Of a DNA stretch of 51,845 bases, positions 47,161 through 50,301 are shown piece by piece (position 1 is the first letter of the stretch; the number at the start of each line of letters is the position of its first letter). Source of the DNA: Escherichia coli (lineage in GTDB: Bacteria > Pseudomonadota > Gammaproteobacteria > Enterobacterales > Enterobacteriaceae); NCBI RefSeq assembly GCF_003334315.1, contig NZ_QOWR01000030.1; one strand, 5' to 3'. Both the position numbers and the translations under genes were made by a program. Below the pieces are notes generated by a model, which did not search any database, was not told where the DNA came from, and saw only the letters and a program-made list of their open reading frames with translations.

Positions 47161-48516
47161 TTACCTGTTTTCCCATAATCTCAGCATCGCTTTGTGCTCG
47201 TCTGTCAGCACAATCTGCGGGCGTCTGGCTCGAATATAGCTAATCGCTTCATTAACGGTTTTACAGTGTCCGTAACATAACAACCATGCCGCCACCACCA
47301 GCGCACTGCGCGATAATCCCAATGCACAATGGACCAGAACGCTGCCTTGCTCTTCGCGTAATGTTTCCAGCATCGCCACGGCCTGTCGGAGCTCCCCCTC
47401 TTCCGGAACCACCAGATCCAGCATCGGTACACAAAAATAGAGTCGATCTTTTGTGGCTCGTCCGCGAGGGAATTCAAAGGTGACGTCCAGAACCGCATTC
47501 TGTGCCGGAATATGTCGTGGAAACGCCCCTAAATAAACACCAGCAGTCATTTTGCTCACCGGCTCCAGGCGACGACAAAACCAACGCATAGACAGCCACA
47601 TCCCGATGCGGCAGGGCAATGTCAGCCAGTAAACGGCGGGCGGTAGTTTCCCCTGACTATCTTTCCCTGTTGTTATCGCGCCAAGCCCACCGTACCCACG
47701 GCCAATTATGAGTAGCGATAATACTGGCCAACATAACCAGACTGACCACCATAACTGAATCATCATCATTAGCTCCATCAATACAATGCACGAGCCCGCG
47801 CCTACGACATAGGGCAGTGCTATTTTGATTCGACGTTGATCAGGTTTCTGATAATTCCAACGACGGTCGACGGGCACCATCCAGTCAATCAACATACCTA
47901 CCGCCAGCCCTGTGATGACATCAATAAAATGATGCTGCCAGGTCGTCAGCGTCGAAATGGCGATGAGTAAAAACCATCCGCCGCAGACTTTACGCCACCT
48001 CTCAGCCAGATGCTGACGAAAGTGACGCCAAAGTAGCCAGCAGAGAATAATATGCAGCGAAGGAGACTGGTTATAAGGCAGATCAAACAGTTCAAGTTGC
48101 GAAAATAGCCATCCTGTCACCCCACTCACTTCAGGACGGATAAAACTAAACTTCAGCGGGTAGAGAAAAAAACCGCAGCAGGCCATTACCGTTGCCAGAA
48201 TAAGCCGGTGGACAAGTCGGCGCTGTTCGAATGTCGTGCTACAAACGAACAGCGAAAATCCATATAAAAGATCCAGACTCCAGTAAGGAACAATAGTCCA
48301 GGGAAGAAAAGGGATCGCCGTTTCCCAACCGAATACCTGACTGGGAATATCATGGCTGTTAAGGTCCTGAACCGCGGTGAACTGATTAAGAGATCCATAG
48401 GTGAAGAAGAAAAACGGGGCCAGCAACAATAACCAGCCAGCGCCTTGTAGCAATACGTTCCGACGTTCAGTTATCACGACGCACCGCCATCGAAACCGTA
48501 AAAATACCCCACTCAT
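47161..48516 (-). CDS. ynbD: inner membrane PAP2 phosphatase fused to dual-specificity phosphatase domain (YnbD-like)
   Basis: ORF 47161..48552; C-terminal HCALGLSRS phosphatase P-loop; start set to ATG at 48516 but GTG/TTG alternatives nearby, so start uncertain. Confidence 0.75.
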
Positions 48517-50131
48517 CAATCCGTTGTGTGCATTTATCAAATCCGGCATCACGCACGAGTGAATCCATCTCCCCTTGCGAACGCACGCGCATTACCCACG
48601 GTTTACCATCTTTATGACTGGTTAACACCCCGGCAATCATCTCCAGTTGAGGGTGCCACGGCTGCCCGGTGTAGAGGAGAATGCCGCCCGGTTCGATGGC
48701 ATTGGCAAGACCTGCGAGTGAGTTTTTTACCTGCTCATTTTCGGGAAAAAGCTCATACAGGCCAGAGACAATCGCCAGCGTAGGCCGCGGAGTTAACGCG
48801 CTGAGTTCCTCCGGGTTAAACGCATCGCCCTGTTCAAAACGCACCCGCCCAGACATTCCCCGTTGAGCAATCATCTCTTGCCCCTGTGCAACATTTAACT
48901 CGCTGTAATCACGTAACAAAATATCGCTTACGGCAGGCTCGTTTGCCAGCTCATCCAGTACATAGCGCCCATGCCCTGCGGCAATGTCAACCACGCGGAC
49001 GGCTAAACCTTTGGCGTGGAGATCGGCAACGGCTTGTTTAATCAGTATTTGTAAATGGGTTTTGCGCTGGCGAATACCGCGCCAGCCAACACTGTTCAGG
49101 TAGATTTTGTCGACTAAACGCCCGAATGCGTTACTACCTTGCGGTTGATTTTGATAGACATAATCCAGCGAACTGCCTGAATCAAAGCCGGTGCTCATTC
49201 CGAGATGCAGGCCCGCAGAGTGCGCCCCGAACAATTTCATCGCCTTACGCATAAAGCGATACGCCAAATCAACCGGCGATAATGGCACGGGTCCACCAGA
49301 AAGGAGCCGCCATCGATCCGCTGATGGTCCTGTGCGGTCTTCATGCTGATAATCAAATTTTTGCGACTTGTTAGCATATAAACGACTAATAAAGCTTTGC
49401 ATTTTTTCAAATGCCTGCGCCCTGTTCTCTTTACCCAACGTGTCGTGATAAAAGCCTGGCAGCAGATGCAGCTCTTTCAGAGGGCTACGTAATCTCTGAT
49501 AAAAATCAATCTGCGGTTGACGATGCACCACATAGTCATCGCCTGATATCAGAAGTTGCGTGGGGAGCGTAATCGCCGCCGCATCGCTAACAATACGTTC
49601 AGACGTTTTATAAAGATCGAGCAAGATATTAACGGCAATCGCCCGTGTGATCAGCGGATCATTATTGAAACTCGCCACCCGTTGGCGATCGTGGGTCAAA
49701 TAGTGCCCTTTCACATACGAATTAATAAAAAACAGACCACGCAGATGATGCCATAACGCCAGCACAGGACGTGCCAGCGGCACATACAATTTAACCTTAA
49801 AGGCCGGAGAAGCCAGTACCAGCCCGCGAATTGCAGGTGCATAATCATGAACCCATGTGGCAACCAGCACTGCGCCGACGCTTTGCGCGATCACTACCAC
49901 CTCATCCAGTCCGACCTGGCTGTCACTGGCAGCAAAACGGATAAAAAGCACGATGGGCAATAGCATAAAGAGGATGGGTTGTGCCACCAACATCAACAGC
50001 AATCCGGTAAGAAGAGAAAGCGCCAGTGCAGCAAGAGTGATGTGATTCGCTGTAACGTGGTGCTTGTAAAGCCAAAACATCGTCGGCCTTAACAGCGACT
50101 GAAAGAGCGGTTTTATCTGGTAGAGCGTCAT
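48467..50131 (-). CDS. YnbC-like hydrolase/methyltransferase fusion with an unexpected membrane N-terminus (possibly chimeric ynbA'-'ynbC), 554 aa
   Basis: ORF track (TTG start trimmed to ATG at 50131; stop codon immediately upstream). Residues ~28-66 are two hydrophobic helices with an NHIT motif; then the C-terminal two-thirds of an alpha/beta hydrolase (AQSVGA at the nucleophile elbow) and a SAM methyltransferase ([11 protein letters not shown]). Confidence 0.65.
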
Positions 50132-50301
50132 TATCAATCCTTGATAATTCGGTTTGCGCTATGGTGCATCAATTCCCCTGACGGAGATATCGCAACACGC
50201 CGCTTCATTAAAAATTCAGAATATATCAAGGTATTGGGGACTCACTGTCAGGAATAATTATCCCCAATTAATCAAAGGGTTAAGAAATATTACGTTGTGG
50301 A

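Follow-up and report, generated by a model that had tools for sequence, protein, structure and literature searches.

The DNA analysed here, called the window below, is a stretch of 51,845 nt from Escherichia coli (RefSeq assembly GCF_003334315.1, contig NZ_QOWR01000030.1), and the subject of this study is its ynb locus, where one long open reading frame (ORF), ynbA'-'ynbC, joins the beginning of ynbA to the end of ynbC. The neighbours of this fusion ORF are the usual genes of the E. coli ynb locus, with ydbD upstream and ynbD downstream. In strain K-12 MG1655 the same interval is occupied by four separate genes, ynbA (201 amino acids), ynbB (298 amino acids), ynbC (585 amino acids) and ynbD (b1408-b1411), and the initial annotation of the window, made from the DNA letters only, had correctly taken the first three to be separate. 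That annotation placed an apparently chimeric ORF at 48467-50301. The ORF is real and has the N-terminus quoted there; the interval, however, consists of the ORF together with the 170-bp intergenic region next to it, and the strand, which was left unstated, is minus. Features of the locus are collected in Table 1. The GTG start of ynbD lies before the stop codon of the fusion, so that the two frames share 11 nt.

Table 1. Features of the ynb locus in the window and of its surroundings (positions are those of the window)
Feature	Position	Strand	Basis
ynbA'-'ynbC chimeric ORF, 554 amino acids from the ATG at 50131	48467..50131	minus	ORF listing, K-12 alignment
The same ORF from an in-frame TTG two codons before the ATG, 556 amino acids	48467..50137	minus	ORF listing
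ynbA-derived part, codons 1-65: N-terminal cytoplasmic segment and hydrophobic stretch, without the catalytic DG..AR motif	49937..50131	minus	K-12 YnbA alignment
Deletion junction: one remaining copy of the 9-bp direct repeat TTTATCCGT, encoding F-I-R	49937..49945	minus	overlap of blastn blocks
ynbC-derived part, YnbC codons 97-585 and stop	48467..49936	minus	K-12 YnbC alignment
Truncated alpha/beta-hydrolase remnant (Hydrolase_4 / monoacylglycerol-lipase-like), fusion residues 75-233	49433..49909	minus	Pfam
S-adenosylmethionine (SAM)-dependent methyltransferase domain Methyltransf_20, complete, fusion residues 244-551	48479..49402	minus	Pfam
ynbD (PAP2/dual-specificity phosphatase), intact, GTG start according to the NCBI Prokaryotic Genome Annotation Pipeline (PGAP)	47161..48477	minus	ORF listing and annotation
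ydbD-ynbA intergenic region, 170 bp, with the ynbA promoter	50132..50301	minus	comparison with K-12
ydbD (DUF2773), 3' remnant, upstream end cut by IS1	50302..51641	minus	ORF listing, blastn
IS1 end, interrupting ydbD and extending past the window edge	51642..51845		sequence match
azoR	46502-47107	plus	beyond ynbD
hrpA	42399-46301		beyond azoR

When the reverse-complemented window was compared with MG1655 by blastn, two collinear blocks were found. The first block relates window positions 51641-49937 to K-12 positions 1476111-1477815 with 97.9% identity, and the second relates window positions 49945-46001 to K-12 positions 1479417-1483361 with 99.2% identity. These blocks share 9 bases of the window, which lacks 1,610 bp of K-12. 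The missing DNA includes the 3' two-thirds of ynbA (codons 66-201), the whole of ynbB and codons 1-96 of ynbC. No ynbB sequence is left in the window between the blocks, and the blocks abut without unaligned bases, with no insertion sequence (IS), foreign or filler DNA at the junction. The initial annotation had proposed an in-frame deletion of about 1.6 kb joining the 5' end of ynbA to the interior of ynbC, with loss of any ynbB-like gene, and the MG1655 alignment that it recommended agrees with it on both points.

At the protein level the fusion divides exactly at this junction. Its residues 1-65 correspond to YnbA 1-65 (...PIVLFIR), 63 of 65 being identical to K-12, and its residues 66-554 correspond to YnbC 97-585 (FAASDSQ...), with 474 of 489 identical. 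The K-12 YnbC protein itself begins with MENSRIPGEH... and does not have the N-terminus of the fusion. The ynbC start is 1,517 nt beyond that of ynbA, which puts ynbC in the +2 frame; this offset is why the reading frame is kept across the junction even though 1,610 cannot be divided by three. The locus resembles K-12 ynbABCD in its position between ydbD and azoR/hrpA, in the ynbA start and upstream region, in the 3' 1,470 nt of ynbC and in ynbD; it differs by the absence of 1,610 bp and by the joining of two genes as one ORF of 554 codons. The window carries a derived deletion allele of the ynbABCD operon.

The domain content of the fusion was evaluated with Pfam. Methyltransf_20 (PF12147) is present at full length (model positions 1-309 of 309, E 1.3e-151), following the hydrolase part as the initial annotation had described. 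Hydrolase_4 (PF12146) is matched only at model positions 76-236 of 239, compared with 3-238 in K-12 YnbC. CDP-OH_P_transf (PF01066) has no match in the fusion and is found at residues 27-175 of K-12 YnbA. The scan, also suggested beforehand, thus returned one complete domain, one partial domain and no phosphatidyltransferase.

The N-terminal part has retained the membrane segment of the cytidine diphosphate (CDP)-alcohol phosphatidyltransferase family, as is seen from its identity with YnbA and from residues 30-68, which form one long hydrophobic stretch with room for two membrane helices and a short A-Q-P turn. A two-helix membrane hairpin is the topology that we would predict for it. The catalytic motif of the family (D-G-x2-A-R...G-x3-D-x3-D) is lacking in the fusion; its first segment in YnbA, LDGMLAR, starts at residue 71-72, past the junction at residue 65, and was deleted. 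An N-H-I-T motif near the N-terminus had been taken as typical of these enzymes. This motif does not define the family, and the motif that does, from YnbA residue 72 onwards, has been lost.

The hydrolase part begins just before the nucleophile elbow (AQSVGA), as had been noticed, with 96 YnbC residues missing rather than the estimated 90 or so. Residues 18-274 of intact YnbC align with monoacylglycerol lipases (Mycobacterium tuberculosis Rv0183, PDB 6eic, and human MGLL; E 3e-15). The regions of the nucleophile elbow, the acid and the histidine are all within the retained part, where AQSVGA, SGDDYV and GFYHDT of the fusion align to GHSMGG, GTDDRL and GLYHEV of 6eic. In contrast to these lipases, the fusion lacks roughly one third of the fold at its beginning (YnbC 1-96). 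Model positions 1-75 are gone, and with them the N-terminal strands and the oxyanion-hole region, including the segment LFHRGHEH that aligns to the HG box LAHGLGEH of 6eic. A domain shortened in this way probably does not fold, and hydrolase activity of the fusion would not be expected.

No NCBIfam family scored above its cut-off for the fusion, YnbC or YnbA. The best NCBIfam matches of K-12 YnbA, all below threshold, were archaetidylinositol-phosphate and phosphatidylinositol-phosphate synthases rather than PgsA. Taken with YnbB as a CDP-diacylglycerol synthase paralogue and YnbD as a phosphatase, these matches hint that the product of the intact operon is a phosphatidyl-alcohol lipid, formed through a phosphorylated intermediate.

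The same junction is present in many other strains. With a junction-centred query of 141 bp, coverage of at least 80% was obtained in 194 of 5,426 complete E. coli genomes. A query of 49 bp, built so that neither half can seed a match by itself, matched 179 genomes of the same set, 177 of them at coverage of at least 80%. The allele is therefore present in about 3.5% of complete E. coli genomes. Hosts and serotypes of the carriers are diverse, and their genomes range from 4.48 to 5.44 Mb. One carrier, NZ_CP010171.1 of strain H7 (RG49_RS26355 and RG49_RS03375), is 100% identical over 2.8 kb. Moreover, the identical 554-residue protein is deposited in GenBank under several accessions (AUY91738.1 and others), on at least 1000 contigs.

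In these genomes RefSeq PGAP annotates two overlapping partial pseudogenes and does not record one continuous frame. The first half is named 'CDP-alcohol phosphatidyltransferase family protein, missing C-terminus', and the second is a 'class I SAM-dependent methyltransferase' or 'bifunctional alpha/beta hydrolase/...', 'missing N-terminus'. The names given by GenBank submitters ('hydrolase', 'bifunctional alpha/beta hydrolase/methyltransferase') differ in leaving the YnbA-derived N-terminus unmentioned. No published description of the allele was found in the literature under the ynbA/B/C/D gene and operon names. The allele is already in public genomes, annotated as pseudogene fragments, and is an ordinary short-repeat deletion allele. 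In the 90%-identity protein cluster that contains the fusion, the other listed members are 768-residue YdbD proteins (DUF2773), which looks like a clustering artefact of the database.

How did the deletion arise? The two K-12 end points share TTT[A/G]TCCGT, a match of 8 bases out of 9 with 5 exact bases. Chimeric queries were used to seek genomes with an intact operon and the flanking haplotypes of the carriers, and only one was found, NZ_CP148426.1 of strain Z1323CEC0014 (locus L012). Its match to the carrier flanks is 100% for the ynbA side and 99.5% for the ynbC side; other intact genomes reach at best 99.2% and 98.3% respectively, the latter with K-12-like sequence. In an alignment of about 5.4 kb, Z1323CEC0014 is the same as two of the carriers (L007 and L010) at 129 of 129 variable sites outside the deleted interval.

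Within the deleted interval Z1323CEC0014 differs from K-12 at two sites. One is a G to A change in ynbC (YnbC V95I), by which the ynbC copy becomes TTTATCCGT, so that this genome has a perfect 9/9 direct repeat, at ynbA nt 187 and on the ynbC side at nt 1796. The short direct repeat that the initial annotation advised looking for at the reference end points is accordingly imperfect in K-12 and perfect in the closest intact haplotype. The second site is a 1-nt deletion in ynbB, annotated as a frameshift by PGAP (L012, 5806-6701), which makes the spacing of the repeats 1,609 bp instead of 1,610 bp. Provided that this missing base does not come from a sequencing error, the operon may already have lost its activity by the time the 1.6 kb were removed.

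In E. coli, deletions between short direct repeats are known to occur by RecA-independent slipped misalignment, as in the classic lacI deletion spectra. The present allele resembles them in the perfect 9-bp parental repeat at both end points, in the retention of exactly one copy in the product, and in a junction free of added bases and mobile-element DNA. It differs in being a natural polymorphism and not a mutation selected in the laboratory. A slipped-misalignment origin is what this product structure suggests. An ancestor with the V95I change would have carried TTTATCCGT twice in direct orientation, once in ynbA (codons 63-65) and, some 1.6 kb away, once in ynbC (codons 94-96). Misalignment between the copies, by replication slippage or short-homology deletion, would then have removed one copy together with the whole interval (ynbA 66-201, ynbB and ynbC 1-96), and the loss of 1,610 bp would have joined the two genes in frame. 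Deletion mediated by an insertion sequence was considered and rejected: no IS lies at the junction, and the IS1 copies of the locus are elsewhere, in ydbD in the window and within the ORF in two other strains.

The TTTATCCGT pair is not a special hotspot, since it is one of 36 direct repeats of at least 9 bp in ynbA-ynbC. Pairs of nine-mers in this region number 45, against 22 +/- 6 in base shuffles.

If the deletion has spread through the species, then we can ask: Did it happen once or several times? To answer this question we compared the flanks of 11 carriers, the window and ten fetched loci (designated L001 and so on), in which four flank-haplotype groups were distinguished. The first group (window, L001, L006) combines a common ynbA-side haplotype, W_L, with a rare ynbC-side haplotype, W_R. 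The second (L003, L008) combines W_R with a rare ynbA-side haplotype, X_L. In the third (L007, L009, L010) X_L is followed by W_R as far as fusion nt 368 and by K-12-like sequence afterwards, and in the fourth (L005, L011) X_L is followed by K-12-like sequence from nt 207.

We favour one origin of the allele, on the X_L/W_R haplotype. X_L on the ynbA side has a 100% match in one intact genome, that of Z1323CEC0014, and W_R beside the junction occurs in no other intact genome than this one. Farther from the junction, the ynbC haplotype of the window was matched at 99% or above in only 107 records, and both records sampled from this band were carriers; the nearest sampled intact ynbC has 98.3% identity to it. 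A junction-proximal ynbC haplotype that is otherwise carrier-specific argues for common descent. The other carrier groups would have appeared later, as the allele spread and its flanks were converted by intact donors and replaced up to the junction. Such conversion tracts would stop at the junction because homology ends there.

The position of the polymorphisms weighs against a single origin. With the junction at nt 195, single-nucleotide polymorphism (SNP) differences between carriers come as near as nt 166 on the left (29 nt away) and nt 207 on the right (12 nt away), so that a single origin requires conversion tracts ending at the heterology boundary. Independent use of the same 9-bp repeat pair, several times and in different backgrounds, would give four flank combinations among 11 carriers, with differences at nt 166 and nt 207, directly, and the perfect repeat does exist in at least one intact haplotype. 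However, the K-12-like ynbC that forms the right flank of L005 and L011 has only the 8/9 repeat, and with 36 comparable repeats in the region one would not expect this same pair to be used again. Every carrier group also shares at least one rare flank haplotype with others, and heteroduplex halting at the heterology boundary would account for tracts that end at the junction. In view of the shared rare flanks and the 36 similar repeats, we judge a recurrent hotspot to be less likely than one origin, and improbable in itself.

A tract of this kind may also be present in the 5' part of ynbA. A very divergent patch of 133 nt (fusion nt 34-166, window 49966-50098) has 8-9 SNPs in Z1323CEC0014 and in most of the carriers, with flanks identical to the window. 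The window group has the common haplotype in this patch. The pattern suggests a short recombination tract that reaches as far as the junction.

The next question is whether the fusion still has a function. We consider it very probable, for the account as a whole, that this is a repeat-deletion allele of ynbABCD in which the fusion is a non-functional or marginally functional remnant, and a slowly decaying remnant is its most likely state. Expression from the ynbA promoter and start, both unchanged, would give a protein of about 61 kDa with the YnbA membrane hairpin and no phosphatidyltransferase active site, a hydrolase without its N-terminal third, and a whole methyltransferase. Since YnbB, the CDP-diacylglycerol synthase paralogue, and the phosphatidyltransferase YnbA are both lost, the locus is probably dead as the predicted pathway. 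IS1 has inserted within the fusion ORF in NZ_CP062876.1 (L004, 3814-4511) and in NZ_OY754409.1 (H1), and ynbD is still intact there.

Two observations do not fit this decay easily. The fusion ORF is open over 554 codons, without stop or frameshift, in nine of the ten sampled carriers, which differ by at most 38 codons. In addition, the pairwise ratio of non-synonymous to synonymous substitution rates (dN/dS) between remnant and intact genes is 0.13-0.19, no higher than between intact genes, so there is no clear signature of relaxed constraint. Most of the divergence among carriers, though, probably predates the deletion or was recombined from intact alleles, and the ratio therefore says little about the period after it. 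Among changes private to the window 4 are non-synonymous and 2 synonymous, numbers that are small and not significant.

A different explanation for the open frame is that the fusion is expressed and kept by selection, either as a membrane-tethered SAM-dependent methyltransferase or as a translated bridge to the overlapping ynbD. The fusion has kept the native start and upstream region of ynbA and is read in frame, its methyltransferase domain is complete, and its hydrophobic stretch is long enough for two membrane helices. The frame has stayed open across four flank haplotypes, the exact protein is on those numerous public contigs, and dN/dS is not elevated. The 11-nt overlap with the ynbD start could mean that an open frame keeps ynbD translated, and ynbD is annotated as intact in all 10 carriers inspected.

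Against such selection, an in-frame result is expected by chance for one deletion in three, and two carriers have the ORF broken by IS1 but still possess ynbD. With YnbA and YnbB gone, any lipid substrate coming from them would be absent, and folding may be prevented by the loss of the N-terminal third of the hydrolase domain, against which the remainder of YnbC is packed. The few private substitutions do not favour constraint either, and the adjoining ydbD is frameshifted or truncated by IS1 in many carriers, including the window. Moreover, the K-12 ynbA promoter depends on BglJ-RcsB and is silent without it (PMC3950696). For these reasons selection for a working fusion seems unlikely to us. 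If it were true, a single repeat-mediated deletion would have produced a new membrane-tethered enzyme in nature, and recombination would then have carried it through E. coli.

The last alternative, that the junction is an assembly error or that the fused gene is original and K-12 carries an insertion, can be dismissed almost with certainty: the window does end in IS1, as is common for draft contigs, but an artefact is ruled out because the junction is one uninterrupted match in 177-194 independent complete genomes, and a fused ancestor is ruled out by the three affected genes, which encode full-length domain proteins when intact and truncated ones in the fusion, and by the intact arrangement in more than 4,000 genomes, K-12, phylogroup B2, O157:H7 and strain W among them.

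The remnant that we prefer has some practical meaning. Laboratory work has shown that cells can do without ynbB, which has only an auxiliary role beside cdsA in MPIase synthesis (PMC6362211), so its loss would be tolerable. Its natural absence, together with that of an intact ynbA, from about 3.5% of complete E. coli genomes agrees with this laboratory dispensability; YnbB is the CdsA paralogue for which a back-up role in making the glycolipid MPIase has been proposed. The carriers are natural knock-outs in which the product of the ynb operon can be studied, and the 1.6-kb size difference is a simple polymerase chain reaction (PCR) marker for the allele. That the pair of 'partial pseudogenes' of PGAP is really one continuous frame is relevant to curators and to proteomics searches. 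The replacement of flanks up to the junction neatly illustrates, on a small scale, how recombination tracts end where heterology begins. The allele has little importance outside annotation and strain typing.

Upstream of the fusion, the ydbD-ynbA intergenic region has 7 SNPs compared with K-12. A promoter scan found no consensus sigma-70 site in this region, a result that is uninformative for an activator-dependent promoter. Only the 3' part of ydbD, about 1.34 kb, is left in the window, where it is cut by IS1. In about 20 complete genomes IS1 lies near the same part of ydbD. The exact IS1-ydbD junction of the window had no single match in the 5,426 genomes, every top match being two joined pieces. 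Among the fetched carriers, ydbD is frameshifted in L001, L003 and L006, and IS1 stands next to the ydbD remnant in L005 and L009, at different positions. In Z503 the upstream region is rearranged and ynfF adjoins the remnant. As a whole, the ydbD-ynb region of these lineages seems prone to decay.

The neighbourhood also varies outside the carriers. In ATCC 25922 (NZ_CP037449.1, phylogroup B2; L013, 1-1010) the gene immediately upstream of ynbA is pdxI, and ydbD is absent from this position, which indicates that the presence of ydbD varies between phylogroups. In NZ_CM184318.1 (strain F11, H260) only the last 146 nt or so of the queried ynbC segment match and a partial methyltransferase is annotated, suggesting a different and larger deletion of the operon.

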